From positions 450,001 through 482,000 of the forward strand of contig MKSO01000001.1 of the NCBI GenBank assembly GCA_001897305.1: a DNA stretch of 32,000 nucleotides. The letters are read 5' to 3'. This DNA is from Candidatus Saccharimonadota bacterium (lineage in GTDB: Bacteria; Patescibacteriota; Saccharimonadia; Saccharimonadales; Saccharimonadaceae). The stretch's first letter is position 1; the number at the start of each line of letters is the position of its first letter. Shown piece by piece: positions 8,670-31,553 of this stretch. The translations under genes were made by a program, and so were the position numbers. The notes beneath the pieces were generated by a model that saw only the letters and a program-made list of their open reading frames with translations, made no database searches and was not told where the DNA came from.

Positions 8670-9866
8670 TTATGAGTACAGTTCCTCGAGAGGATTAAGT
8701 TGTGCGGCCCGCTTTGCGGGTATTGTACCTACTATCCACCCAATTATTACCGATAGCATAAGTATTATTATAATCTGTCCGGTCGGTAATACAAAGACAG
8801 AAATTTCACCATAAAAAGCATCGGACGCGGCTAAGGCCCGCGCGTAGCCATTAAGTATAAATCCGCCGACCGTACCAAGTATAATTCCCATAACAGCGCC
8901 CAGTGACGTAATAAGTATCGACTGAATGACAAACAGAAGGCTAACATCTGAGCTACGAAGGCCCATAATACGCAGGAAGCCGATCTGTTGCGTCTCCTCC
9001 ATGAGTGTGAGTGTAATAATAGTAAATGTCGCAGTGACCGTAATAACAAACACGATGATACTGAAGACTACTAAAATGCCATTTATGACCGCAAAAAGCT
9101 TATTGATCTGATCGATGGTATCTTGGATGCTTGATGTCTGCAGTCCTTGACGCTCAACGGCTTCACGCACGGATGGGGCTTTGTCTGGATTGGTAAGTTG
9201 AAGACTCAATTGGGATACACTGCTAAGCCCCTGATCTTTCAGCGAATCAATTGAAGCATATATAACAGGCAAATTACCCCTGTCAATCACACCCTTAATG
9301 GTATACGACTTAGTTTTCGTGGGTGTCTCTTTATCAATTGTACGAACATAATCTGGCGTAAGGTTAATTGATAATTTGATTTCCTTCCCAATAGCAGACT
9401 TTGGATCAATAGAAAATGCAGTCAGAACAGTAGTGCTGACAACAATAGTGTCATCGGCTGGCTGCTGCTCGGTCGCACCCTGGACGGTGGTCGGCGGGTT
9501 AAGAGCGAAATAGTTACTTGATACAGCATACAGTGGTGCGTTGAGCGTAATGCCATGATATACGGCGTTCGATAATAGTCCGACAGATTCTGCAACATCG
9601 CTCACGCCACTTATGGATTGGATCGACGATACTCGCTGTTCATCTAATTTAACAGCATTAGAGCTCCGTAGCGTTACAGAGACGACGTTCGTCGCTTGAC
9701 CATTTTTTACTTGTGTATCGACAAGGTTTTTTAACCCCATCTGCAAACCAAAAAGCAAGACAATAACGCCGGAAGTTAATGAAATACCGGCCAGCGCCAG
9801 CGCTAAGCGAAGTTTTTTCTTAAAGGTATTAAGAAGAGCTAGACGAATAAAGAATAGGCTACGCAT
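8670..9866 (-). CDS. ABC transporter permease, FtsX/MacB (type VII) family with ~220-aa extracytoplasmic domain
   Basis: 398 aa: TM1 (LALALAGISLTSGVIVLLFGL), a large soluble loop (aa ~45-265), then three C-terminal TMs. This is the 4-TM FtsX/MacB/LolC topology. AAGGTG SD is present. The start is 2 nt after the ATPase gene stop. Confidence 0.85.
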   Translation of the reverse strand: MRSLFFIRLALLNTFKKKLRLALALAGISLTSGVIVLLFGLQMGLKNLVDTQVKNGQATNVVSVTLRSSNAVKLDEQRVSSIQSISGVSDVAESVGLLSNAVYHGITLNAPLYAVSSNYFALNPPTTVQGATEQQPADDTIVVSTTVLTAFSIDPKSAIGKEIKLSINLTPDYVRTIDKETPTKTKSYTIKGVIDRGNLPVIYASIDSLKDQGLSSVSQLSLQLTNPDKAPSVREAVERQGLQTSSIQDTIDQINKLFAVINGILVVFSIIVFVITVTATFTIITLTLMEETQQIGFLRIMGLRSSDVSLLFVIQSILITSLGAVMGIILGTVGGFILNGYARALAASDAFYGEISVFVLPTGQIIIILMLSVIIGWIVGTIPAKRAAQLNPLEELYS

Positions 9867-9868
9867 GA

Positions 9869-10666
9869 TTACACCTTGTCCTTATTTTCTTCGCTTTCAA
9901 CGTAACTAATTGCATCGCGTATATTCGTAAATGGATTACGCCTGTCTTCGATATCCCAAAGGCGACCATCCTGCATAAAGAACCACTTTTTTGACAACTT
10001 AAGGAAGTTCAAGTCGTGAGTTACCATGACAATAGTAATACCGTGAGCGGCAGAGGTATCCATTAGGATTTTTGTCACCTCTTCGACAGATTTTGTATCT
10101 AAGTGAGCGGTTGGCTCGTCCGCAAAAATGACCCAGGGGTCTTTTACGAGTGCCCTTGCTAGTGCAGCCTTTTGTTGTTGACCTGAAGACAATTCATTAG
10201 GGTGCTGATGGATTTCCTTTTCGAGCCCCACTTCTTTAATGAGGGTTATAGCTTTTTTTCGTGCCTTCGAGCGACTCCATCCCAGTAGATACAGTGGCAG
10301 TGCGACATTATCTATGAGCCCCATACCATCAATCCAGTACTGCGCTTGGGGTAGATAGCTCACCTTTTTTCGTCGTATCATCGTACGCTGTTCTTCGCTA
10401 AAACCAAAAAGCGATTCACCTTTTAGGAAAACCTCACCAACATCGGGCTTCGAAAGACCCATCAACATACTCATGAGCGTCGACTTGCCCGAGCCAGACT
10501 GGCCGAAGATAACAGCAAAATCACCATAGCCAACTTGTAACGTTACATCAGATACAGGACTCACCATCTTATCGCCCACTTTGAACACTTTTGATATACC
10601 CAACGTTTCGATAATTGGGGCCTTTACCTCGTGTTCCGGAAGTTGCTGCGTATCGTTATCGCTCAT
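9869..10666 (-). CDS. ABC transporter ATP-binding protein (MacB/LolD/FtsE-like)
   Basis: 265 aa with Walker A GQSGSGKST, Q-loop LPQAQ, signature LSSGQQQKAALARAL, Walker B VIFADEPTAHLD and H-loop VTHD. The start is 1 nt after the stop of the 2426-aa gene. Confidence 0.93.
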   Translation of the reverse strand: MSDNDTQQLPEHEVKAPIIETLGISKVFKVGDKMVSPVSDVTLQVGYGDFAVIFGQSGSGKSTLMSMLMGLSKPDVGEVFLKGESLFGFSEEQRTMIRRKKVSYLPQAQYWIDGMGLIDNVALPLYLLGWSRSKARKKAITLIKEVGLEKEIHQHPNELSSGQQQKAALARALVKDPWVIFADEPTAHLDTKSVEEVTKILMDTSAAHGITIVMVTHDLNFLKLSKKWFFMQDGRLWDIEDRRNPFTNIRDAISYVESEENKDKV

Positions 10667-10667
10667 G

Positions 10668-13600
10668 TTAAAACCTAAACAATTGTAGCATTAGGTTAAG
10701 GACGGTATCAAATACGTTGAGCTGTTTATCGGGGGTTACAACCGTAGTTACACTCCCCTTGGCCGTGTTGCCGTCAAGGTCTCGTGAAATTACTTGAATT
10801 TTGTATATATCAGCAAGGTTAAGACCCGACAGAACAACAACATGATTAGTTGTTGGCTCAGTATCAAGCGGCGTCGTTTTTGACAGTACCTTGTCGTTCA
10901 TACCACCATAGGCAATTTGAGATGTCGCCGGCTCATCTGTTTTCCAGGTTACTATGAGCTGGGCTTGTTTACCCTTCCCTGTGTCTGTTGTTGTGACGGT
11001 GTAATTTATCTCGGAGAGTTCGGGCGGACGCGTATCTACTTGCGAGGTCCAACGCTGCGCCGATGACGATGCCTGGTTGCCATACTGGTCACGACCCTCA
11101 AAAGTAAATTGATATTCGGTGTTACTTGCAAGGTCATGCAGCTCGATACTGTGCTGGGTAACGAGTTCGCTTAGCGATGATTCAAGACTCTTGCCAAGCG
11201 CTTGATAGCGAACTGTAGAGCTGGTTGGCACATTAGTTAACCAACTCACCCTCACCCCGGCGTTCGTTTCATTGTCGAGTGGCTGAAAGCGGATATCACT
11301 AATGATAGGACGAGCAATGGTAGTAAAGGTGTAATCGTCACTACTTAAAGTACTTCCAAAAGCAGTCGTAGAATTAATCTTGAAGTGATACAACGTACCC
11401 GAACTAAGGCTTGTTAATTTAGTGGTGTGCATGGTCGTGTAGCTACCTGCCTCATCATCAAGCGCGAGACCATAGCTTGTGTTTGCGCCATATTGAATAC
11501 GTGCATGGGTTGGTACTGTGGTTGACCACGATACAACTGCGCTATCAGCAGTGATATCTGACACTTTTACGTCCGCCAGCTGGGCGGCGGCTGTTGTTCG
11601 GAAGGTTGCTATGTCCGAGTAGGCGTCTGTAAGGTTGTAACTGCGATCGTTATCGAAACTTTGAATGCGGTAGTAGTACGTACGCGACGGCGACAGCCCA
11701 GTGATTGTTATCGAGTGATCCGTCACGAGCTCGAGTGAACCCTTACTTTGTGACAAATCCGTTGGAGTCGTACCGTAGTAAACGAAGGTAGTTGAACCAC
11801 GGTTAGTTGCCCAAGTAATCTTTGCCTGGTCAAAGCCAACTGTCACCTGTGGTTCAACGACGACACTTGGTGGTGTATTAAATGTTCCTTTAGCACTTTG
11901 AATAACGATACCAGAGAAACCACTCATATTTTCAACACTGTCTTCAGCCGCAACCCGATAGTAATACTGTGTATCAAGCTGTACATCGAGGTCGACAAAT
12001 GCTCTCGTGCTCGTATTTCCAATGGTTGTAAAGGCATGTCCATCAAGTGAGCGCTGGACAACATAATCCTTAATACCATTACCTTCAAAGGTCGGCTTGT
12101 CCCACGTCAACGTGATTGTCCATCGGCTGGTATTGCGGTCAGAAGTATCGGAAGCGGTAACATTTAGTGGTATACCCGGCGATACGGTATTAGCGATAAA
12201 GTTCGCCGAAGCGAAACTATTCCAGTTGGCGTTGCCAGCCTCATCCTTGGCCACCATATATATAATATTCGTACCCTTTTGAGTTGCGGCTTTAAAAGCT
12301 GATATAAACCGGTCAGAAGTACAGGTCGTATTTTGCGGCGAAGGAAGGATATTTATGCTATAGCAGTAGGTCATTTGATCCGGGTCACCTGAATAGACTA
12401 TTGGAAGGTCCCAAGTAAAGGCAAACAAGTTACTTGTAGAAGTAGGCGGTACAGCACGCAGGTTTGTTACAGGGCCAGGCGGATCGGTTGTAAAGTAGTA
12501 CGAAGCGCTCGTGTAACTAGGAGCATAGTTGCCAGCCTTGTCATAGGCGCGGACATAGAAGACGTTTGTACCATTTTGATAGGCGGCCGATATATTCTCT
12601 AACTTCGTGCCATCCTGACATGTCTCGACCGCAAACGGACCGTCTGGCGCCCCTGTGTAATAACAGTATCCGGCGACATCAGAGTCGGCGTCGTATGCAT
12701 TAGGCCATTCAAACGTGTAGTTATTACGAGTAGTAAAACCTGAAGGCGTAACCGTCACGAGACTTGGATTAGTTGGTGGAACGTTATCGAATTTATATAT
12801 AAAGGGACTAAATATAGCACTATCGACATTTCCCGTCGTATCCTGTGCTTGTATGCGAATATAATACGTACCTGACAGCGTCAAATTAGGAGTATATTCA
12901 CTTGTCGGCACAAATACTCCAGCCGTGCGCGGCGTGGCTGTTGGGTCGGTGCCTGCATAGACCCAATACCCAGCGACGTTCGAGCCTAGCGGACCATCAG
13001 TCGCCCCGCCGGCTTCACCTGGTTCAGGCCAGTCAAAATAGGGTTGAGCTTTGTTGTACCAAGTGTTATTTAAGAGAGGTGTCGCTTTGGTATTATCGGT
13101 ATACGCGTCAAAAGTGGTTGGGTTGGTCGGTGGGTCAACATCGTAATAATAATTTAAGCTGTAGTCATTAACAGTCGGAGTTGAGATATTATCGTACGAT
13201 ATCAACACGGCTTTAATTTGCGTGAAGCGTTGCGGCGTCGAATTCACCTTCCCAGAGATACTATTCGTATAGGTCTTAACTTCCGATAATGGTTTCCAGT
13301 CTTCCCAGTTCGTTTCATCAGATGACGAGCGCGTCCAGAATTCTACAGCTGTATTTTGAGGAATCGAAACATTGGCAGTGACGTTGGCATAATCAAACAG
13401 TCCAGCAGTCGTAAATGTCGTCGATATGTGCGTACCCTGACCACTAAAGGCGGACGATGCGGACGGGAAGTTAAACTGCCAGACATCAGGCGTATTCAAA
13501 CCAGCAAAAGCAATTGAGTAATTAGGGTCAACGTCTAATACACGAGCACCGTAGTTGAATTGCTCGGGTGTCGTTACCCCAGCCGACCAAGTATTACTTG

Positions 13601-16600
13601 CGATATCATATATATAACTTGTCTTAGTAACATTGCCGAGTGTGGCATAAATCTTTCCATTTCTCGCAATGAGCGTAGAGCCATAGGAAGTGTTTGCAGG
13701 TAGATTAGTAAGGGTTGTCCAGTTATTCGAGTCAACGTTATAGCGATAGAAGGCGTTTCCCCCATTACCGGCAATCACGTATATATTTCGCTCGGAACTA
13801 TTAAAGTACATCGAACCGTTTTGAATTGTGCCCGGTGCATTAGCCAACGTCGTCCAAGTACCGCCGGTTGTATTTGGTGTGTAGCGGTACAATACTCTAC
13901 TATTACCAGCAAATGCATAAATATTGGAATCAACCGTTACTAGTGATGATGGCCCAGGGCGATAGGCGTTGCCGGGTACATTATTCATCATCACCCAACT
14001 ACTATTACTAAAGTTATACTCGTACAGCACACTCGTACTTTTCGCGGGCAGATAGAATAGCCTGCCACTAACGTAGCCTAGCGAACCGCCAATACCCGTA
14101 GTGGGCGGTGACGTAAGATATAACGTCTCTCCTGTTTTATAATCGTATTTCACAAAGCGTGAAGTGCTATTTGTACCTTCCGATGCCATAAGCGCGTAGA
14201 GATATTTCGAACCGTCATATGTAGCCGTTGTTGCATTACCTGCGATCCACTGATAAGCATTGACCTGAGAATCATAAGGTACTCTATCAAGACTATCGAT
14301 CCCTAGCGTAGACGGACTAAATGTTTTCGTCCATGTGTCATAACGAACCATTTTTCGAGAATTCGTTCCGTTACCACCAGGTAGTATATAAATATAACGC
14401 TGCGAGTCTGAAGTTATCGAACCGTTGTATGTTTGTACGGGCACTCCCCGTACTTCGCTCCAGCTGTCTTTAGCAATGTCATAACGAAAGGCGCGCTGAT
14501 TAGCACTAAGGTTATCTACTGTATTGCCAGTAAATATATACAACCCCCCGTTGCCATCACTAACAAGGTTGTTCTGTACAGAAACAGCAGAAATTGGTGC
14601 AGTAGCGAGTGTCTTCCATGTGTCTGTAGATATACTGTACATCGCCATGGTGGGGCGAGAGCGTCCAGTGTTGTACCATATCCATGATCCTAAATAAGCA
14701 TAAATCGTATCATTGCCATCATACCAAGTACCCGACCCGCTTGCCGTAATGGTAGTTGGATAGGCACTTAGTGGAGAAAAAACTCCAGAGCTAATACTGT
14801 ACATGTAAAATTCTCGCACGCCGGTAAGAAAGACCGATATCCTATCGTTGCCAAGATATATAATATCGGTTCCAGCTTGGGCATTAGAAGGTAACGCTGG
14901 CAATGCAGTCCAGGTATCGTTTGTAATACTATATTTATAAAAGCCAGTAGTACTACCGCCCGTAACGAGATAGAGAGTATCGTTGCCATCGTAGGTCAAG
15001 CTACTACCCGTGCTAACGGTGGCTGGTACAGAGTTGAGTGTCGTCCAAGTAGTTGTTACCGTATTGTATCGCCAGAACGTATTTGTTGAAGATCCTCGCG
15101 CAACGTAAATTGAATCTCCCACTATTTTCATCGCACCGCCTCTAGTGTCTTCGGGTGGCATCGATACGGGTCCAGTAGACCATACTCCACCGCTAGCATT
15201 TGGCAATGACATTGAACCATTATTCAAAGAAATGCCGCTGTTCAGCCCTTGGCTGAAGTCTTCTTGAGATGTCCGTATTTGTGATCCCGGTGGTGAAATG
15301 TAGAAGTAACGGTAGCTATAGAACGTTGCCGGTGCACTCACATTACCCAGTTGGTCAACAGATTTAATACGAACATAGTATACGTCGCCGGCAACCATTG
15401 GTGCCGTTACAGTGTAATCAGTAGATGTCTGGTAGCTTCCGTCAGTAGCTGGGTCGGCGGAAGAGTTTGTGCCATAGTAGACAAAATACCCCTTAACACC
15501 AGAGCCGTTAGCGCCATCATTAGCCCCACCCCAAGTAAAGTATGGATGCTGATATTGGGAAGTTTGACCAGAAGTAAGTTGAGTACCACCATCTTTTTTA
15601 CTATAAGCCGTAAACTGCGAAGGCAAGCTCGGTGGCGTTTCTTCTTGGGTATAATTTAAGGTAATGTTTGAAACCGTAGGCGTTGCACTGCCATTACCCG
15701 ATAGGGCAACCTTTATTTGAATGTATCGATTTACCTGCGATTGAATAGTTTGTCCAGAAACGGTCTGCCAATCATCCCAAATTACACCATCTTTTGAAGT
15801 ACGTGTCGAAATAGTTGTCGTACCAGACCCGGCTATAGTTGTTTGTAGGCCTCCCCATGTTGCAACTTGCGTAAGGTCGTACGTCTTAGAGGTCCACGTG
15901 CCTGAGCTTACATAATTATTGCCATTAGGGCTCCAACTCCACAGGTTACTCATAAGCTGCCCACCCGACACATATAACTTATTTGCCGAGGTGCTATAAA
16001 AACCTGCCGTGTATGGGTATGCCGAACGTGGCAAATCGGCAATGCGAACCCACGTTCCATTTGTCGTATCATAACGGAAGACCATCTTAGCTCGTATAGG
16101 CGTGCGGTCACTGACCCCGACGTATACATACCTCGATCCGTCAGACGTCATAAAGCCACCGTGATCAATCGAACCGGCCGGGATATTTTGAATAGCCGTC
16201 CATACATTCGTATCCATATTGTATTGGTACATAAAACCAGACTGTCCACCAACTAACACGTATATAGTACGGTTAATACGTGTCATGTCTCCACCGCTAT
16301 TGACTCCCTGTGGCACCGACGCGCGTGACGACCAAGTATCTGACGATACATTATATCGATAGAAGTTAGTTCTTGCTCCACCAACGGTTAAATAGAGATA
16401 CCCGTCACCTCCATCTATAATGGCTGCGCCCGCCGACGTCGTAGTAGGCAAACTAGACAATGGAATAAAATTATTAGTTGAAAGATCATAGCGCTGAAAG
16501 TCTGTTGTCGTACTGTAATATGGCAAGAAATAAGGTGAGCCGTTATAATATACGCCCGAAACGCCGCTACGAGTGTTGATCTGACTTCCTATACGAGTAG

Positions 16601-17948
16601 CAGTGTTGGTAGAAAGATCGTACTTGTATACACGATCTGTTGAAGTACTGTCTATACCGCCAGTGTAATAAAGTGACTGCGCCCCATCATACACAGGAAT
16701 TTGGTGACTTTCTCCAGCGTCTGTCGTGCCGGGCAAGAGCGCATTAGTATTCCAGCTATTAGATATAACATCGTAGCGCTGTGGTTGCATTCGGATCTCG
16801 TTAGTAAATACTGTATATAAATAACGGTTACCGTCGGCGGCAAGTGGTGGTGGAAAGTCGTACTCGCTCGCTCCAGACGCTTGCGCATTAAGGGCTGTCC
16901 ATACAGTAGTGGAAGGGTTGTAACTAAGGAGTGAGTAAACATTCGAGCTATAATTAAGCCGCATCGCATATAACACTCCATTCATATACACCATAGACTG
17001 CGCGACGTTACCATACCCCGATTGGTTTGCTAGTGATGACCAGGTATTAGAGATGAGGTCGTACTTTTTAAATTCACCAGAGCCATTCACCATAGCGTAA
17101 ATAGTGTTCGCACCATCCCAAGCCATATTAATACCACCCGACACCGAGCCTGTTGTCGGATACGAATTCAAACTAGTCCAGGAATCATCGTTAACAGAAT
17201 AGCGCCAAAAAGACGGCGAGCTTTGACCGCGGAAAATATAAACGTACTTCCTATTACCCTGAACTACCGTGGCGCCATCGCTTGTATCACCTATTGTCGA
17301 AGGGAAGCGAGCCAGTTCAGACCACGCATCCGAAGGTATATCGTATCTAAAGAACCGGTTAGACGGTGCCGCAGATGGACCACCTGGAGCATAGTAAAGG
17401 CCATTTGTACCATCAAACTCAAGTATTGAACCAGCGCCACAAAAAATAGGTGGCGTCGAAAGCCGTACCCAGGCCTGCTGCTCGATATCGAATCTATTGA
17501 GGTAACAATTCCCATCAAAAGAAGAAAGCATGTAAAGCGTATTATTCGGCCCGTAAGCAAAGCGAATTTGAGCATACGTCATAGTTGGTGAAGTTTGCAT
17601 ACCATTCACCGCCGATGTATCCCAACTTCCAGCCGAGCCATCCTGCAGACGCATTGAACTACCATCAGCACTAATATTTATTCCACCATAATCAGTCGTG
17701 CCGCTGCGAATATCAGTGCTACCAAGTGAAAGTGTCTTAGGGGCAGCTTGTGAGGGCAGCGCTCCCCATACCACAAGTCCAGCACTAACAACTACAATAC
17801 CAACAATAGCAGCATGACGGCCCCACACTGGGGTCTTATGCCAGGTACGATGCGCACGCTTACCAACCGGCGTAGATAGAACACGAAACCAGGCTTTTTG
17901 AAGCCTGATCTTCCATAGTATCCATCGTGTGCTAGTACCCTTTTTCAT
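10668..17948 (-). CDS. Giant (2426 aa) secreted/surface protein: signal anchor, 2 x [12 Kelch-like blades + beta-sandwich + FN3-like], then 7 FN3-type domains
   Basis: AGGA SD is present. The N-region is basic and Trp-rich, followed by a hydrophobic core AAIVGIVVVSAGLVVWGAL and PSQA/AP. About 24 repeats of the f.rYd...n.W..l...P (Kelch-like) motif are present. FN3 motifs include TITLTWDKPTFEGNGIKDYVVQRS...YYYRVAAED and KITWATNRGSTTFVYYG...YYYRIQSFD. Confidence 0.85.
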   Translation of the reverse strand: MKKGTSTRWILWKIRLQKAWFRVLSTPVGKRAHRTWHKTPVWGRHAAIVGIVVVSAGLVVWGALPSQAAPKTLSLGSTDIRSGTTDYGGINISADGSSMRLQDGSAGSWDTSAVNGMQTSPTMTYAQIRFAYGPNNTLYMLSSFDGNCYLNRFDIEQQAWVRLSTPPIFCGAGSILEFDGTNGLYYAPGGPSAAPSNRFFRYDIPSDAWSELARFPSTIGDTSDGATVVQGNRKYVYIFRGQSSPSFWRYSVNDDSWTSLNSYPTTGSVSGGINMAWDGANTIYAMVNGSGEFKKYDLISNTWSSLANQSGYGNVAQSMVYMNGVLYAMRLNYSSNVYSLLSYNPSTTVWTALNAQASGASEYDFPPPLAADGNRYLYTVFTNEIRMQPQRYDVISNSWNTNALLPGTTDAGESHQIPVYDGAQSLYYTGGIDSTSTDRVYKYDLSTNTATRIGSQINTRSGVSGVYYNGSPYFLPYYSTTTDFQRYDLSTNNFIPLSSLPTTTSAGAAIIDGGDGYLYLTVGGARTNFYRYNVSSDTWSSRASVPQGVNSGGDMTRINRTIYVLVGGQSGFMYQYNMDTNVWTAIQNIPAGSIDHGGFMTSDGSRYVYVGVSDRTPIRAKMVFRYDTTNGTWVRIADLPRSAYPYTAGFYSTSANKLYVSGGQLMSNLWSWSPNGNNYVSSGTWTSKTYDLTQVATWGGLQTTIAGSGTTTISTRTSKDGVIWDDWQTVSGQTIQSQVNRYIQIKVALSGNGSATPTVSNITLNYTQEETPPSLPSQFTAYSKKDGGTQLTSGQTSQYQHPYFTWGGANDGANGSGVKGYFVYYGTNSSADPATDGSYQTSTDYTVTAPMVAGDVYYVRIKSVDQLGNVSAPATFYSYRYFYISPPGSQIRTSQEDFSQGLNSGISLNNGSMSLPNASGGVWSTGPVSMPPEDTRGGAMKIVGDSIYVARGSSTNTFWRYNTVTTTWTTLNSVPATVSTGSSLTYDGNDTLYLVTGGSTTGFYKYSITNDTWTALPALPSNAQAGTDIIYLGNDRISVFLTGVREFYMYSISSGVFSPLSAYPTTITASGSGTWYDGNDTIYAYLGSWIWYNTGRSRPTMAMYSISTDTWKTLATAPISAVSVQNNLVSDGNGGLYIFTGNTVDNLSANQRAFRYDIAKDSWSEVRGVPVQTYNGSITSDSQRYIYILPGGNGTNSRKMVRYDTWTKTFSPSTLGIDSLDRVPYDSQVNAYQWIAGNATTATYDGSKYLYALMASEGTNSTSRFVKYDYKTGETLYLTSPPTTGIGGSLGYVSGRLFYLPAKSTSVLYEYNFSNSSWVMMNNVPGNAYRPGPSSLVTVDSNIYAFAGNSRVLYRYTPNTTGGTWTTLANAPGTIQNGSMYFNSSERNIYVIAGNGGNAFYRYNVDSNNWTTLTNLPANTSYGSTLIARNGKIYATLGNVTKTSYIYDIASNTWSAGVTTPEQFNYGARVLDVDPNYSIAFAGLNTPDVWQFNFPSASSAFSGQGTHISTTFTTAGLFDYANVTANVSIPQNTAVEFWTRSSSDETNWEDWKPLSEVKTYTNSISGKVNSTPQRFTQIKAVLISYDNISTPTVNDYSLNYYYDVDPPTNPTTFDAYTDNTKATPLLNNTWYNKAQPYFDWPEPGEAGGATDGPLGSNVAGYWVYAGTDPTATPRTAGVFVPTSEYTPNLTLSGTYYIRIQAQDTTGNVDSAIFSPFIYKFDNVPPTNPSLVTVTPSGFTTRNNYTFEWPNAYDADSDVAGYCYYTGAPDGPFAVETCQDGTKLENISAAYQNGTNVFYVRAYDKAGNYAPSYTSASYYFTTDPPGPVTNLRAVPPTSTSNLFAFTWDLPIVYSGDPDQMTYCYSINILPSPQNTTCTSDRFISAFKAATQKGTNIIYMVAKDEAGNANWNSFASANFIANTVSPGIPLNVTASDTSDRNTSRWTITLTWDKPTFEGNGIKDYVVQRSLDGHAFTTIGNTSTRAFVDLDVQLDTQYYYRVAAEDSVENMSGFSGIVIQSAKGTFNTPPSVVVEPQVTVGFDQAKITWATNRGSTTFVYYGTTPTDLSQSKGSLELVTDHSITITGLSPSRTYYYRIQSFDNDRSYNLTDAYSDIATFRTTAAAQLADVKVSDITADSAVVSWSTTVPTHARIQYGANTSYGLALDDEAGSYTTMHTTKLTSLSSGTLYHFKINSTTAFGSTLSSDDYTFTTIARPIISDIRFQPLDNETNAGVRVSWLTNVPTSSTVRYQALGKSLESSLSELVTQHSIELHDLASNTEYQFTFEGRDQYGNQASSSAQRWTSQVDTRPPELSEINYTVTTTDTGKGKQAQLIVTWKTDEPATSQIAYGGMNDKVLSKTTPLDTEPTTNHVVVLSGLNLADIYKIQVISRDLDGNTAKGSVTTVVTPDKQLNVFDTVLNLMLQLFRF
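10730..12786 (-). repeat. Array of ~7 tandem FN3-type domains (coding repeats) at the C-terminus of the 2426-aa protein
   Basis: Seven ~95-aa units each begin with a Pro-rich linker (NVPPTNPS, PPGPVTNL, VSPGIPLN, TPPSVVV, AQLADVKV, RPIISDIRF, RPPELSEI). Each ends in a Y-x-[FYV]-x-[IV] core such as YYYRI, YHFKI, YQFTF or YKIQV. Boundaries are approximate. Confidence 0.7.
13455..15175 (-). repeat. Second block of ~12 Kelch-like beta-propeller blades (coding repeats)
   Basis: Recurring motif about every 48 aa: FWRYNTVTTTWTTLNSVP, FYKYSITNDTWTALPALP, AFRYDIAKDSWSEVRGVP, FYRYNVDSNNWTTLTNLP, SYIYDIASNTWSAGVTTP and others. Boundaries are approximate. Confidence 0.7.
15908..17576 (-). repeat. First block of ~12 Kelch-like beta-propeller blades (coding repeats)
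   Basis: Recurring motif: LNRFDIEQQAWVRLSTPP, FFRYDIPSDAWSELARFP, FWRYSVNDDSWTSLNSYP, FKKYDLISNTWSSLANQS, FYRYNVSSDTWSSRASVP, VFRYDTTNGTWVRIADLP and others. Boundaries are approximate. Confidence 0.7.
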
Positions 17949-17955
17949 CTATTTC

Positions 17956-26405
<8,450 letters not shown>

Positions 26406-26453
26406 GGCATCCTCCTGATAACTAATTTATACCCCCACAAAATGGTTGTCTTT

Positions 26454-26462
26454 ATGATACCA
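26454..26462 (-). promoter_or_regulatory. Extended -10 element TGGTATCAT: candidate promoter of the TPR/giant-protein/ABC/atp gene train
   Basis: The minus strand reads aatgtacaTGGTATCATaaag (TGnTATcAT, 5/6 match to the -10 consensus), ~50 nt upstream of the GTG start. A second -10-like TATAAA lies ~25 nt upstream of the start. It abuts the palindrome ATGTACAT (26462-26469). Confidence 0.35.
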
Positions 26463-26503
26463 TGTACATTCCGCTTTCGCTATACGAAAACTACTTTAAA
26501 TGC

Positions 26504-26531
26504 TTGAAGTTCATCACTCCTTCTATATACT
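26504..26531 (+). promoter_or_regulatory. Candidate sigma70-type promoter TTGAAG-16 nt-TATACT for the glycosylation operon, 7 nt upstream of ATG 26539
   Basis: TTGAAG (26504-26509), a 16-nt spacer, TATACT (26526-26531), then tatagcc and ATG. There is no SD, so a leaderless transcript starting at or near 26539 is predicted. Confidence 0.4.
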
Positions 26532-26538
26532 TATAGCC

Positions 26539-27507
26539 ATGACCACTCGTCCTATTCTATCTGTTGTTGTGCCTGTATATAACGAAGGTTCTGGCATACA
26601 AACCTTCCACGCTAACTTAATAAAAGAACTTAAGCCTCTTGTTGGTGATAACTACGAGGTAGTGTACTGCAACGATGGAAGTAGCGACGATACCCTCGAT
26701 AAACTTTCTCTCATAGCCCAGAAAAATAAAAAATGTATTGTTATTGCTTTATCGCGTAACTACGGAAAAGAATTGGCCCTAGCCGCTGGCATTGCTGAGG
26801 CAAAAGGCGAAGCAGTAGTACTTATTGACGGTGATGGTCAACACCCGATCTCGGCGCTGCCTACATTTTATAAAGCTTGGCAAGATGGTGGACAGGTTAT
26901 TGTTGGACGGCGTAGCCTTAAGGACACCGAATCTGCTACTAAAAAACTCACATCTAAGCTATTCTATGCGTCGTACAACATTCTTACCGGCAACAAGCTC
27001 GATCGTTCCGCCACAGACTATCGACTACTAGACCGAGAAGTTGTTGATGCATATCTTCATTTTTCCGAAAGTGACCGCTTAAACAGGTTTTTAATAGATT
27101 GGTTAGGTTTTGATCGTCGATCTGTCCCCATAACTCGCGATACTCGCATTGCTGGTGATACAAAGTTTACCTTCACAGCATTAGCAAGGCTCGCTTTAAA
27201 TACACTTGTATCATCCTCCTCTCGTCCGTTGCACTTATTCCTAGCGCTAGGAGCCTGCATCGCTTTAGGTTCATTTATACTGGGTATAAGCGTAGGGGTT
27301 GAACAAGTTCTTCTTGGCGATCCTCTTGGCTGGAATTTTACCGGCACCGCCCTTCTTGGTATATTATTGTTATTTTTGGTTGGAATTTTGCTAATTGCAC
27401 AGGGCGTCAATTCATTGTACGTCGCCGCAACGTATCGTGAGGCGAAGCAACGACCCCTGTACGTTATAAATAAGCGCTACTCATCTAACTTACATGAAGA
27501 AAAATAG
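26539..27507 (+). CDS. GT2 family polyprenyl-phosphate glycosyltransferase (GtrB/ArnC/DPM1-like)
   Basis: MTTRPILSVVVPVYNEGSGI, CNDGSSDDT and LIDGDGQHP (DxD-type) motifs, with two C-terminal TM helices. The ORF track starts at 26500, but family-typical N-termini and the promoter geometry favour ATG 26539. Confidence 0.88.
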   Translation: MTTRPILSVVVPVYNEGSGIQTFHANLIKELKPLVGDNYEVVYCNDGSSDDTLDKLSLIAQKNKKCIVIALSRNYGKELALAAGIAEAKGEAVVLIDGDGQHPISALPTFYKAWQDGGQVIVGRRSLKDTESATKKLTSKLFYASYNILTGNKLDRSATDYRLLDREVVDAYLHFSESDRLNRFLIDWLGFDRRSVPITRDTRIAGDTKFTFTALARLALNTLVSSSSRPLHLFLALGACIALGSFILGISVGVEQVLLGDPLGWNFTGTALLGILLLFLVGILLIAQGVNSLYVAATYREAKQRPLYVINKRYSSNLHEEK

Positions 27508-27901
27508 ACGCAGTATTGTTCGCTACGTCGCAATTGGTAGTTTCGGCTTTGCTGTCGAGTTTGCGGTTATTCTTGTAGCAGAAACACTCGGAGCGCCTGG
27601 GACTATAGCAGTAGCAATTAGTTTTGTTATAGGCTTTATTATGACTTTTCTGTTGCAGAAAATTATCACCTTTCAAAACAAATCTTTTAAGCAGAAACTT
27701 TTTCTTTGGCAAATTATTGCCTATAGCTTGTTGGTTGGATGGAATTTCATATTCACTATCGTCGTCACTGCACTTTTGGAATCATTCTTACCCGTCGTGC
27801 TCATTAGGGCCATCGCGCTTGCGATAACCGTACTGTGGAATTACTATATATACAAGAATTGGATCTTCAAGAAACACACAGATGAAATTCCTCAAATTTA
27901 A
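27494..27901 (+). CDS. GtrA-family small polytopic membrane protein (putative lipid-linked sugar flippase)
   Basis: 135 aa with 4 predicted TM helices. The N-terminus RYVAIGSFGFAVEFAVILV and C-terminal NYYIYKNWIFK are typical of GtrA-like proteins. It overlaps both neighbours (14 and 20 nt). Confidence 0.8.
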   Translation: MKKNRRSIVRYVAIGSFGFAVEFAVILVAETLGAPGTIAVAISFVIGFIMTFLLQKIITFQNKSFKQKLFLWQIIAYSLLVGWNFIFTIVVTALLESFLPVVLIRAIALAITVLWNYYIYKNWIFKKHTDEIPQI

Positions 27902-30431
27902 CCCCTTTATTATCGTTGCGTTGTGTATACTATTTGGCACTACTATTTTTTGGTCAATTCAAGCAGCTCTTATATATCAGTATAATGCCGACCAGATAGC
28001 CGACACTTACCTATTTACTTCGCTTGACACTTTTACACACAGCCTCTTCCCAGCGCAGCACTCCTTTCTCGTCAAGTGGCCCCTATTCCTCGCAGTAGCC
28101 CTTTTTCATAACTCACCTTACGCGCTCATTGCTATGACCGTCATCACTTCACTTATTACAGTGGCCGCCTTAGCCGTTCTTTTGGCGAAAATCGAGAAAA
28201 GGCCGGCTATACTTGCATTACTGTATGTAGCATTAAGCTCCGTGCTCTTAGGTACTGCCATGGAGCCAAGTCCGGGCAGCCTACTTCCTGTTGGAATTGG
28301 CATGCTGGCAACCCGTAACATCGAGTACATCATCTTCCTTATTGCTACCCTGTTAATTATTAAAGGTTCGTTAGTTGTAAAGAAGCAGAAGCTCACTTAT
28401 ACCATGGGTGGTTTCGGGCTGTTGCTGTTACTCATTTTGAGTGATCAACTATTTGTACCGATCGCTATTGGTGGAGCAATTTTGCTTGGGCTATTTAGCA
28501 TCATCGTAAAACATACTATTGTACGTAAAATCGCCCTGCAACTGCTCCTTGTCTCATTAGGGGCGTTTGTGGCCGCTTTCGCTATAAGCGCGCTATTTCA
28601 ATATATAGGGCTTTTCGTTGCCGCATCGGGCGCAGGTGGAAGCCCTTACAGTCTTGTCACCTCACCTAAAGAGCTCGTTATAGCGGTCATTTATGGCATT
28701 CTTGGTATTTTATCCGTATTCGGCGCCAACCCAGTAGTGGGTACTCTGTCTGCCTCACACCTACCAGGTGCCCTTATTCATAGCTTTCAGTCCATATCAA
28801 TCCTTACTACCGCTGTTAATGTAGTCCTGTTTTGCATAGTTCTATGGGGAGCCTGGTATATTGTAAGCCTGCTTGGCAAAAAACCTAAGCCTAAGAAAAA
28901 GAAGCGGCCAGCTTCAATTTGGTATATATACAGCGCCTACTTAGCAGCTTGCTGTATCGTGACACTTTTCATTTTTTTGGGCACAAAACACTATCACCCT
29001 GTTGACGCTCGCTACCTTTCACTGTTCTTCTTCGCTGGGTTTGTCATCCTGGCTGTCTTTGTGTCAAGTAAGAAGTTCTCGAAGCGTTTTATGGCTATTG
29101 CGGCCGCTGTACTAACAGTGAGCTGTATTGTCGGTATGGTTAGTTTTTCATGGTCATATGCCGCCTCAAAACAGGCCTATGCCTCTATAAAAAGTGAGAA
29201 TGAGCTCATCCAATCAGCTCTGCGTCATCACCAAGTACGAACATTTGCGGCTGATTATTGGCGCGTCTACCCAATCATACAGGGGCTCTCCTCGCAACCG
29301 TCCTCGACTACAAAACCGCTCCCCATGGATACCTGTACGCAGCCACGAAACGTTTTAACAAGTACCGTCTGGCAAAAAGACGCTTTTACCCAAAGCTTTG
29401 CTTATCTTTTGACAACCGAACAAACGGGGACCGGATTTCCTGCTTGCTCCCTTACGAGCATAAAGTCTACTTGGGGCTCACCAAGCGACTCGTTGGTTAT
29501 TAGCGGTACGGCAGAAAAGCCGAAAACACTCCTTCTTTTTTACGATACCGGTAAAAATAACCATACCACCACACCTAAAAGCAATAACTCTGAAACATTG
29601 CTCAAAAGCTTTAGCTCATTAAAAGACGTATCGTGCCCCAGTGGCAATACCGTCGTTCAGACCATTGCCCATCAGGATGATGATATTCTCTTTATGAATC
29701 CCGACTTGCTCCACGGGACCCAGCACGGTGATTGTATTCGTACTGTTTACTTTACTGCGGGTGATGCCGGGATTGATCAGGCCTATTGGCTGGGGCGAGA
29801 AGAAGGATCGAAGGCCGCCTACGCAGCGCTGTTCGGCATCAAGCAACCAGAATGGCGTTCGCGTGATATCATTCTTGATTCCGGTCATCAAATAAAGGTA
29901 TCTCAGCTTTTATCCGTGCAGAACCGAGTTACGCTTATCTTCCTGCATCTTCCCGACGGCAATATAGATGGAAGCGGCTTTAAAACACACGATCATCAGA
30001 GTATAAGTAAGCTCGAAAACGGAACCATCACAACTATAAAAACGGTCGACAATACTTCTATCTACACAAAGCCAGGGTTAGAAGATGCCCTCGTCACTAT
30101 CCTGGACCATTACCATCCTTCTCTCGTTCGCACTCAAGCGCTCAATAACCATAGCGAAAAGTTCTCAGACCACAACGATCATATAGTCGTCGGTCGAGTA
30201 ACTGAACAAGCCTTCCAGCGCTACAAACAACAGCACGAAGAGAGCACCATTATTCATTACATTGGCTACCCCGTTAGAGAACAGCCGCAAAATGTCTCGG
30301 GTGAGGACCTGCGCATAAAAAGAAGTATGTTTTACGCCTTTGCCCTCCATGATGGCGCCACCTGTATCAGCGATGAGGCCTGTTTGCACACTGCCTATAC
30401 CTACTACCTGGACCGACAATACACCGAATAA
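27882..30431 (+). CDS. Fusion protein: ~13-TM GT-C-like membrane glycosyltransferase + soluble linker + C-terminal PIG-L/LmbE-family deacetylase
   Basis: 849 aa. Residues 1-425 carry ~13 hydrophobic helices, an acidic first loop (YNADQIADTYLFTSLD) and a KKPKPKKKKRP loop. Residues ~590-849 carry the PIG-L motifs VVQTIAHQDDDILFMNPD, VYFTAGDAG and SDHNDHIVVG. Confidence 0.75.
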   Translation: MKFLKFNPFIIVALCILFGTTIFWSIQAALIYQYNADQIADTYLFTSLDTFTHSLFPAQHSFLVKWPLFLAVALFHNSPYALIAMTVITSLITVAALAVLLAKIEKRPAILALLYVALSSVLLGTAMEPSPGSLLPVGIGMLATRNIEYIIFLIATLLIIKGSLVVKKQKLTYTMGGFGLLLLLILSDQLFVPIAIGGAILLGLFSIIVKHTIVRKIALQLLLVSLGAFVAAFAISALFQYIGLFVAASGAGGSPYSLVTSPKELVIAVIYGILGILSVFGANPVVGTLSASHLPGALIHSFQSISILTTAVNVVLFCIVLWGAWYIVSLLGKKPKPKKKKRPASIWYIYSAYLAACCIVTLFIFLGTKHYHPVDARYLSLFFFAGFVILAVFVSSKKFSKRFMAIAAAVLTVSCIVGMVSFSWSYAASKQAYASIKSENELIQSALRHHQVRTFAADYWRVYPIIQGLSSQPSSTTKPLPMDTCTQPRNVLTSTVWQKDAFTQSFAYLLTTEQTGTGFPACSLTSIKSTWGSPSDSLVISGTAEKPKTLLLFYDTGKNNHTTTPKSNNSETLLKSFSSLKDVSCPSGNTVVQTIAHQDDDILFMNPDLLHGTQHGDCIRTVYFTAGDAGIDQAYWLGREEGSKAAYAALFGIKQPEWRSRDIILDSGHQIKVSQLLSVQNRVTLIFLHLPDGNIDGSGFKTHDHQSISKLENGTITTIKTVDNTSIYTKPGLEDALVTILDHYHPSLVRTQALNNHSEKFSDHNDHIVVGRVTEQAFQRYKQQHEESTIIHYIGYPVREQPQNVSGEDLRIKRSMFYAFALHDGATCISDEACLHTAYTYYLDRQYTE
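29650..30428 (+). other. PIG-L/LmbE-type N-acetylglucosaminyl deacetylase domain of the 849-aa fusion protein
   Basis: AHQDDD (29667-29684) corresponds to the family AHPDDE metal/catalytic motif. HNDH corresponds to the HPDH motif. TAGDAG is also conserved in the family. Confidence 0.7.
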
Positions 30432-31553
30432 CTACACTTTATGAGCGTCGATGCCTATAGCATCCTCGATACTATCAAACCCGTCTCGGTCTAAAAGTTT
30501 TACTAAGCCTCTGTTAATACTTCCTACTAAACTAGGGCCCTCATAAATAAGTCCTGTCAAAAGGTCGACAAGGCTAGCGCCTAGCCGTATTTTCCGGTAA
30601 GCATCCTCGGCGGTAAATATTCCCCCGACACCTATAATAGTAAGCTTATCGCCATATTTTTGATACGTTTTAGCAATAAAGAGATCACTCGCCGCTTGTG
30701 TCGGTAGGCCACTAATACCCCCTTTTACGGATGATGAAACGGCAATGCCTTGACGGTTCTTGCGTAGATTAGATACGGTAACGCCTTGTACCGAATGACG
30801 AATAATGACATCAAGTAGGGAACAATACTTGCGCCACGGTACGTCACTCGGCATCTTTATATAAACTGGTTGCATAAGATTAAGTGCATCAATGGCACCT
30901 AGAAGAGCGTCGAGCCTTGCGGGCGTTGTGAATGGTTCGCCGCCATACGTATTAGGGCATGAAATATTAATTTCGAAGTTATCAGCATACAAACGAAGTG
31001 TTTTTAGGGTTTGAACGTAGTCGTCAATACCTTCCTTATCCGTACTTGTCTCTTGGCTGTTTGTCCGAGCAACGGAGATCGTAACAGGTACTCTTGCCTT
31101 GCTCTGACTACCCTTGGCGTCTCGCAATGACGCGGCGATTGCTTCACGTCCAGTATTTGCCAGCCCTACATGCACAACGATAGCTTTTTGTTCGGGGATT
31201 CGATGAAACCAAGGCTTCGGGTTGCCTTCACAAACTTTACTCGTAATTGACCCGACCGTAATATGTCCAAATCCAATCGCTTGCATAATAGGAATAAGTC
31301 GAGCATTCTTGTCAAAGCCAGCCGACAGACCAACTGGATTGTCATACTCTAAACCATGGATTGTTTGTGAAAGACGTGGGTTTTTATATGCCCATGAAAG
31401 TGAAGCAAGTTGCCGTAGCGGACGATGCTTGCCCACTTTAGATCCAAGCTCAACTGCTTTAGAGTGCACCACATCAGGCGACTGCGTAAACAGTAACGGT
31501 TTAATGACTCCGACATAGGTTTGGTGTGTAAATACTCTTACAATGTTTCCCAT
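30432..31553 (-). CDS. pyrD: Dihydroorotate dehydrogenase, class-2-like architecture
   Basis: 373 aa with N-terminal extension VIKPLLFTQSPDVVHSKAVELG (compare E. coli ALFQLDPERAHEFT). Other motifs are NPVGLSAGFDKN, the active-site loop NISCPNT, GGISGLP and IIGVGGI. Confidence 0.9.
   Translation of the reverse strand: MGNIVRVFTHQTYVGVIKPLLFTQSPDVVHSKAVELGSKVGKHRPLRQLASLSWAYKNPRLSQTIHGLEYDNPVGLSAGFDKNARLIPIMQAIGFGHITVGSITSKVCEGNPKPWFHRIPEQKAIVVHVGLANTGREAIAASLRDAKGSQSKARVPVTISVARTNSQETSTDKEGIDDYVQTLKTLRLYADNFEINISCPNTYGGEPFTTPARLDALLGAIDALNLMQPVYIKMPSDVPWRKYCSLLDVIIRHSVQGVTVSNLRKNRQGIAVSSSVKGGISGLPTQAASDLFIAKTYQKYGDKLTIIGVGGIFTAEDAYRKIRLGASLVDLLTGLIYEGPSLVGSINRGLVKLLDRDGFDSIEDAIGIDAHKV

Follow-up and report, generated by a model that had tools for sequence, protein, structure and literature searches.

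We analyzed a 32,000-nucleotide stretch of the genome of a Candidatus Saccharimonadota bacterium (contig MKSO01000001.1, positions 450,001 to 482,000; hereafter the window) and focus here on a gene encoding a glycosyltransferase-like membrane protein fused to a PIG-L/LmbE deacetylase. The source genome is a single contig of 900,471 bp and is 98.8% complete. The fusion open reading frame (ORF; 27882–30431, + strand) translates into 849 amino acids without internal stops. It comprises a GT-C-fold membrane domain (residues 1–425; 27882–29156), a stalk helix that extends the last transmembrane (TM) helix together with a small α/β middle domain (residues 426–556; 29157–29549), a variable linker (residues 557–589; 29550–29648) and a PIG-L/LmbE-fold de-N-acetylase domain that is predicted to be exofacial (residues 590–849; 29649–30428). 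Upstream on the same strand lie genes for a 335-residue membrane-anchored GT2 resembling the polyprenol-phosphate sugar synthases ArnC, GtrB and PgfS (26500–27507; PF00535, E 4.4e-26) and for a 135-residue GtrA-family small membrane protein, a putative lipid-linked sugar flippase (27494–27901; PF04138, E 2.9e-14). The end of the GT2 gene overlaps the start of the GtrA gene by 14 nucleotides, the end of the GtrA gene overlaps the start of the fusion ORF by 20 nucleotides, and the three genes are translationally coupled. Public annotation describes homologs of the fusion as 'PIG-L family deacetylase' only.

An earlier note on this DNA had recognized the PIG-L domain from three motifs, all of which are found in the translation where it had placed them: AHQDDD at residues 596–601 (29667–29684), TAGDAG at residues 625–630 (29754–29771) and HNDH at residues 764–767 (30171–30182), the last (H764, D766, H767) being the counterpart of the HPDH motif of MshB (H144/H147). 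Profile and fold comparisons bear out this assignment. Residues 595–777 match PF02585 with an E-value of 7.9e-13 and 49.5 bits against a curated cut-off of 28.2 (E 6e-14 when the domain is searched alone), which is the single match to this family in the whole 900-kb genome. In the AlphaFold2 model, residues 582–849 superimpose with VIA-align on Dac (3wl3_B; Z 17.7, root-mean-square deviation (r.m.s.d.) 3.1, 189 aligned residues), MshB (4ewl_B; Z 16.5, 205 aligned residues) and BshB (6p2t; Z 16.4), with Foldseek E-values for PIG-L fold matches of 1.7e-4 to 1e-3. The fold is thus common to the characterized CE14 enzymes (MshB, BshB, Mca, PIG-L, Dac and the teicoplanin deacetylase Orf2*; Z 14.5–17.7), as is the HxDD + H metal-binding and catalytic motif. 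H597, D599, D600, D601, D763, H764, D766 and H767 are invariant among 48 full-length homologs, and the HDDDHH pattern is kept in 199 of the 205 domains of a wider set. According to the family rule HxD1D2 + H, in which His, Asp and His are the metal ligands and D1 is the general base (PMC4101496, Table 1), H597, D600 and H767 would be the metal ligands and D599 the general base, a correspondence made at the level of the motif.

The present clade differs from the characterized LmbE/PIG-L enzymes in being exported or exofacial and in having two conserved, predicted disulfide pairs within the domain, and it has some 55 inserted residues with respect to the Pfam model, 125 positions of which are spanned by 183 residues. 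It also cannot be reached from those enzymes by sequence search: querying the solved structures with the PIG-L domain alone and with a 47-sequence domain profile retrieved no PIG-L enzyme, and the whole protein and a 48-sequence profile retrieved no PIG-L or GT-C entry. These searches gave chance matches only (USP8, S1P receptor, enoyl-ACP reductase).

The AlphaFold2 model of the fusion was built from the 48 full-length homologs, which are 33–69% identical to the query, and has a mean predicted local distance difference test (pLDDT) score of 90.7 and a predicted template modeling (pTM) score of 0.87. Apart from the PIG-L enzymes, all best fold matches, and all membrane-protein matches, are GT-C enzymes, in line with the GT-C-like character proposed in the earlier note. 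The best is ArnT (5f15; Z 17.0, r.m.s.d. 4.6, 429 residues aligned over model positions 6–555), followed by STT3 (Z 15.8), AglB (15.2), DPY19 (14.5), Pmt4 (14.4), AftA (13.6) and PglB (13.1); VIA-align quotes a helical-bundle background of Z ~13, which the top GT-C values exceed. Sequence comparison gives no family: Pfam at E ≤ 10 has none for residues 1–430 and NCBIfam no match for the membrane domain. Membership in GT83, the ArnT family, was considered and rejected, as alignment of the 48-sequence profile with E. coli ArnT by hhalign yields a probability of 3.7%.

Eleven polar residues of the membrane domain are invariant (N35, D37, H60, K65, R145, N146, E148, D188, H370, D375 and R377), and all of them lie in predicted outer loops, on the side of the PIG-L domain, with none in predicted cytoplasmic loops. 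D37, within the motif N35-A36-D37-Q38, is located in the loop between TM1 (residues 8–32) and TM2 (residues 79–104) and is a candidate for the acidic residue of the first outer loop of GT-C enzymes. This distribution bears on the idea that one of the two domains is inactive, such that a GT-C-like scaffold merely anchors the protein, or a PIG-L fold merely binds, and a single activity remains. The placement of the membrane domain in no known family would fit such a loss, as would the divergence of the PIG-L clade, which is too great to reach solved enzymes by sequence. We nonetheless regard a dead domain as quite improbable, since neither the cluster of invariant polar residues in the outer loops nor the full HxDD/HxDH set, in its near-universal retention, would be expected to persist.

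The last TM helix is joined to the PIG-L domain by a long stalk helix, the small α/β domain (residues ~450–556) and the variable linker of ~33 residues, which is of low confidence (pLDDT 59 over residues 561–570), has no conserved residue in the family consensus and ends at the invariant C585. Modeled alone, the middle domain has a pLDDT of 80.6. Pfam at E ≤ 10 finds no family for residues 431–593 and Foldseek no match to the middle domain at E ≤ 0.001, and the best VIA-wide Z is 5.7, with the ArnT periplasmic domain at 5.4 and AftD at 5.3. We do not claim identity with a GT-C periplasmic domain, as ArnT and AftD are tied with unrelated phosphoribosyltransferase and methyltransferase folds.

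The model contains 11 clear TM helices and two short hydrophobic helices (residues 262–279 and 291–303) within a charge-poor stretch, which may be two more spans or part of a long outer loop. The earlier count of ~13 helices stands for 11 and is ambiguous for two, and the parity is the same either way. Precisely three helices (residues 346–367, 381–395 and 401–425) follow the basic segment KKPKPKKKKRP (residues 333–343), as had been counted by eye, and ~424 residues follow the last helix, close to the ~420 given before. The segment belongs to a strongly basic cytoplasmic loop, KKPKPKKKKRPA (residues 333–344; 28878–28913), located after helix 307–332. Among the 48 homologs, this loop carries a mean of 4.5 lysine and arginine residues (K+R), the N-terminal tail carries 8.8, and the loop before the last TM helix carries 1.7, with another 1.25 where that helix begins, whereas loops predicted to lie outside are neutral or acidic. 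This family-wide charge pattern indicates a cytoplasmic N-terminus and 424 C-terminal residues on the outer side.

The cysteines, which the earlier note had considered uninformative, point the same way once homologs are compared. Exactly six follow the last TM helix in all 48 homologs, at the invariant columns C485, C522, C585, C618, C828 and C834, whereas those in the TM region vary. The four within the PIG-L portion are kept in 187 of 205 domains, and the four clear exceptions drop them pairwise (APCC, VECC, CCAT and CCT-), which leads us to predict disulfides C585–C618 and C828–C834 and leaves C485–C522 as the predicted pair of the middle domain. The genome encodes a VKOR homolog (218223–218609; E 4.7e-32) and a DsbA-like Thioredoxin_4 protein (860068–860544; E 7.7e-24), and hence a disulfide-forming pathway for exported proteins.

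Relatives with simpler topologies provide further evidence. P0131, a protein of 473 residues, has a K/R-rich tail and a single TM helix in front of the middle and PIG-L domains, and aligns to residues 394–848 at 35% identity with all six cysteines kept. Relatives that have signal peptides carry DUF7402/discoidin (F5-F8 type C), PKD, PA14, PG_binding_1, SGBP, ricin B and PLL-propeller domains. From the charge bias, the paired loss of cysteines, the single-pass relatives and the secreted relatives with extracellular domains, the last three being independent of helix counting, we conclude that the deacetylase domain almost certainly faces outward, as the earlier note had supposed.

The opposite arrangement, in which a cytoplasmic PIG-L domain would deacetylate the polyprenyl-phosphate-linked N-acetylhexosamine (HexNAc) before flipping, like ArnD, NaxD and LgmC in lipid A pathways, has precedent on its side. 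To our knowledge, all characterized lipid-linked amino-sugar pathways remove the acyl group on the cytoplasmic face, before membrane crossing, and all characterized LmbE/PIG-L enzymes are intracellular, acting in the cytoplasm or on the cytoplasmic face of the endoplasmic reticulum. The words secreted, extracellular and periplasm are absent from a review of LmbE-like enzymes (PMC4101496). A cytoplasmic domain would, however, need an even number of TM helices after the K/R-rich tail and would put a loop with nine K/R residues outside; six invariant cysteines that are lost in pairs would be unusual in it; and homologous modules possess signal peptides, type-II anchors and extracellular partner domains. 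We reject this arrangement on the topology evidence and consider it very improbable.

The earlier note had suggested looking for the same domain fusion in databases, where it recurs in hundreds of loci. With a word-index search, 206 proteins matched at E ≤ 0.001; the best 120 of these are full-length and all contain PF02585. The annotated source organisms of the homologs are nearly all Candidatus Saccharibacteria or Saccharimonadales. GTDB representative genomes hold at least 547 relatives, and the best 80 come nearly all from Saccharibacteria metagenome-assembled genomes. One full-length homolog (L124, DATKKU010000023.1) comes from a contig of 4.7 kb assigned to 'Candidatus Binatia'; among best-80 loci that are otherwise from Saccharibacteria, it most likely reflects misbinning and not a true occurrence outside the lineage. 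An even sample of the class gave a match in 12 of 201 genomes, two of which hold only a secreted PIG-L form, and one of four other genomes of the same genus has a match; this patchy distribution marks the gene as an accessory rather than a core trait.

When the PIG-L domain was used by itself in an exhaustive search, 1,983 representative clusters matched, and 583 of these did so at E ≤ 1e-30. A hydropathy scan of the top 141 clusters, at a threshold that missed several evident signal peptides, classified 74 as multi-TM fusions and 36 as having a single TM helix or a signal peptide. These figures reveal a large, conserved clade of exported PIG-L proteins, with ~2,000 representative clusters and with multi-TM, single-TM or signal-peptide forms as the majority of the closest 141. 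In its secreted branch (L012 1033–2394, – strand; L013 433–2346, – strand; P0215, P0221, P0238, P0245, P0251 and P0262), a signal peptide precedes a PIG-L domain that keeps the same two pairs of cysteines and is followed by extracellular modules. The nearest secreted-form clusters in the ESM Atlas are mostly from Actinomycetota, and Actinobacteria is the commonest phylum among the nearest structural matches of the PIG-L domain.

The linkage of the fusion to its two upstream partners is conserved. The order GT2–GtrA–fusion is kept in seven of eight related genomes in a genome search. Upstream context was scored in the 72 GTDB loci with enough upstream DNA, and GT2 and/or GtrA is found directly upstream in 63 of them (both in 37, GtrA only in 15 and GT2 only in 11; GT2 thus in 48 and GtrA in 52). 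In five of the best 120 proteins (P0049, P0053, P0074, P0077 and P0114), GtrA is itself fused to the N-terminus of GT-C::PIG-L. Single-pass deacetylase modules, which correspond to the fusion from its last TM helix onward, stand in some cases beside GT2–GtrA with no GT-C gene in the available DNA; such modules adjoin GT2–GtrA at L041 5174–6592, L049 430–1941 and L061 4495–5526. On two metagenome contigs (L040 and L044, 9128–10484), a second GT2–GtrA pair lies directly downstream of the fusion gene, which suggests tandem glycosylation cassettes.

Over its whole length, C-terminal TM region included, the GT2 shares 28% identity with E. coli ArnC (E 7e-38), and its NCBIfam scores are 206.7 bits for PgfS and 129.1 bits for ArnC, both under the equivalog cut-offs. 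A close parallel to the cassette is provided by the three-component glycosylation systems (GtrB/GtrA/Gtr(type), CsbB/GtcA/YfhO and GtlA/GtcA/GtlB; reviewed in PMC8035078), which likewise combine a GT2, a GtrA protein and a polytopic GT-C and whose transfer step, as predicted here, takes place outside the membrane; in the present case the components form one translationally coupled operon. The present GT-C differs from theirs in matching no Pfam family, neither YfhO nor PMT_2, and in bearing a C-terminal exofacial PIG-L domain, and 'deacetyl' occurs 0 times in PMC8035078. The best-supported reading of the locus is a transmembrane glycosylation system of the GtrB/GtrA/GT-C type with a putative fourth, built-in activity.

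The cassette also shares the logic of the Arn-type pathway (ArnC/ArnD/ArnE-F/ArnT), in which a GT2 makes an N-acylated, lipid-linked amino sugar whose amine is freed by a deacylase and which is moved by a small flippase and transferred by a GT-C, a logic equally followed by FlmF2/NaxD/FlmK in Francisella and LgmA/LgmC/LgmB in Bordetella. The likeness extends to the similarity of the GT2 to ArnC and to ArnT as the best GT-C fold match, without profile similarity between the GT-C domain and ArnT. The deacylase here is of the PIG-L type rather than CE4 or YdjC, and is fused to the GT-C and predicted to face outward instead of being a separate protein on the cytoplasmic face; moreover, the host is a Saccharibacterium, in which a lipid A pathway was not looked for. 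A third parallel is the mycobacterial and corynebacterial arabinogalactan galactosamine (GalN) pathway (PpgS, Rv3632 and Rv3779), in which a GT2 that synthesizes polyprenyl-phosphate HexNAc works with a small membrane protein and with a GT-C by which a sugar with a free amine is added to a polymer of the wall. The present GT2, at 24.6 bits against a cut-off of 370, is no PpgS ortholog, and a deacetylase is built in, whereas the flippase and deacetylase of the arabinogalactan pathway are described as 'as yet unidentified' (PMC9671496).

From the domain identities, topology and gene linkage, which are directly supported, we infer that the cassette probably makes a lipid-linked HexNAc, flips it and carries out both its deacetylation and its transfer on the outside, so that an amino sugar ends up at the surface; the choice of HexNAc, the two activities and the free-amine product on a surface acceptor form the predicted part of this proposal. 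On the inner side of the membrane, the GT2 would use a nucleotide sugar to charge polyprenol phosphate with HexNAc, and GtrA would move the lipid-linked sugar to the outer leaflet. There, the GT-C domain would transfer the sugar to an extracytoplasmic acceptor, for example a wall-linked glycopolymer, a lipoglycan or a protein, and the tethered, disulfide-stabilized PIG-L domain would remove the N-acetyl group on the outer face. The end product would be a free-amine sugar of the glucosamine or GalN type, cationic at neutral pH. The genome contains one LCP ligase; wall-linked polymers therefore exist and are a possible acceptor.

Several points weigh against this proposal. The sugar, the acceptor and both enzyme activities are predictions. 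As the GT2 falls below every NCBIfam equivalog cut-off, specificity for HexNAc follows only from the presence of the deacetylase. The GT-C domain lies outside the known sequence families (PMT_2/GT83, GT39, GT66, YfhO, GT87 and others), and the catalytic role of D37 is hypothetical. With no sequence match to solved PIG-L enzymes, the correspondence of the metal ligands derives from motif and fold. Finally, neither partner gene is found upstream in nine of the 72 loci.

The two domains could also serve different substrates, with PIG-L as a general exofacial glycan de-N-acetylase anchored by a GT-C that decorates something else; its target would be, for instance, the N-acetylglucosamine (GlcNAc) of the cell's own peptidoglycan or host surface glycans at the contact between epibiont and host. 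The closest stand-alone relatives are secreted and fused to lectin or peptidoglycan-binding domains, which suits an enzyme acting on polymers rather than on lipid intermediates; the single-pass forms L015 and L016 have no GT2 or GtrA nearby; and the linker that separates PIG-L from the rest is flexible and variable. The fusion itself, however, has no lectin or peptidoglycan-binding domain, and both the fusion and its adjacency to GT2/GtrA are kept over 33–69% identity and hundreds of loci. That single-pass modules, too, can adjoin GT2–GtrA further argues against separate substrates. We regard this alternative as unlikely, although more probable than a cytoplasmic or an inactive domain.

Within the proposed pathway of a lipid-linked HexNAc that is deacetylated and transferred outside, the last two reactions may occur in either order, PIG-L acting on the flipped lipid-linked donor or on the product after transfer. 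The earlier note had envisaged transfer of the HexNAc followed by deacetylation in situ, which fits the conserved GT2–GtrA–fusion cassette, but deacetylation could equally precede transfer. ArnT, FlmK, LgmB and Rv3779 act on sugars that carry a free amine before transfer, and the substrate of eukaryotic PIG-L is a lipid-anchored GlcNAc, for which reasons we lean slightly toward deacetylation of the donor. The polymer-directed, lectin-fused relatives instead favor deacetylation of the product. Deacetylation after transfer would make transfer effectively irreversible, which matters because ArnT is reported to be able to run backward (PMC8495848). As a bolder and distinctly tentative extension, the clade may constitute an extracytoplasmic, disulfide-stabilized branch of the PIG-L family whose tethered members deacetylate polyprenyl-phosphate HexNAc at the outer leaflet and pass the sugar, its amine now free, directly to a fused GT-C of a new sequence family.

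The stop codon of the fusion gene abuts that of the convergent pyrD gene (30432–31553, – strand) with zero intergenic bases (window positions 30429–30434), no terminator-like hairpin is found between the two genes, and a promoter and terminator scan of 26300–30600 performed no better than on shuffled sequence. Elsewhere in the genome, positions 11425–11793, 898183–898533, 802525–802944 and 419339–419800 hold two additional GtrA genes along with two GT-C genes of the ordinary PMT_2 type, which implies several lipid-linked surface-glycosylation systems in a very small genome. On the – strand of the window, two adjacent genes encode giant proteins, one of 2426 residues with Kelch propellers, fn3 and a purple-acid-phosphatase N-terminal domain (10668–17948) and the other of 2566 residues with NHL repeats and Big_1 (17956–25656). 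After them comes a MacB-type ABC pair, composed of an ATPase (9869–10666) and an FtsX/MacB permease (8670–9866), and the giant proteins are probably surface adhesin-like with a dedicated exporter. A 190-residue AAA_33 or zeta-toxin-like P-loop kinase (2217–2789, – strand) adjoins a YgjP-like metallopeptidase (1518–2207).

Our literature searches found no paper characterizing a GT-C::PIG-L fusion, in agreement with the earlier impression that none had been characterized, and none on exported PIG-L enzymes. A transposon-sequencing study of Saccharibacteria (PMC10633639) contains no deacetylase, GtrA or glycosyl term, and an Actinoplanes paper deals with other systems. The soluble module (residues ~430–849) is tractable for expression and assay.

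If the proposed chemistry is correct, the cassette would be a compact and self-sufficient means of giving the cell envelope positive charge, and deacetylation of the donor at the outer leaflet would represent a new route to cationic envelope sugars. Cultivated Saccharibacteria live on Actinobacteria. The protein suggests where the deacetylase of the GalN pathway in mycobacteria and corynebacteria (PMC9671496) might be sought and, should the bolder reading of an extracytoplasmic PIG-L branch hold, would serve as a concrete model of how the sugar is deacetylated in the GalN modification of arabinogalactan in Actinobacteria. Surface charge affects adhesion, resistance to antimicrobial peptides and phage recognition, and, were the proposal true, could matter for the contact of these ultrasmall epibionts with their hosts.

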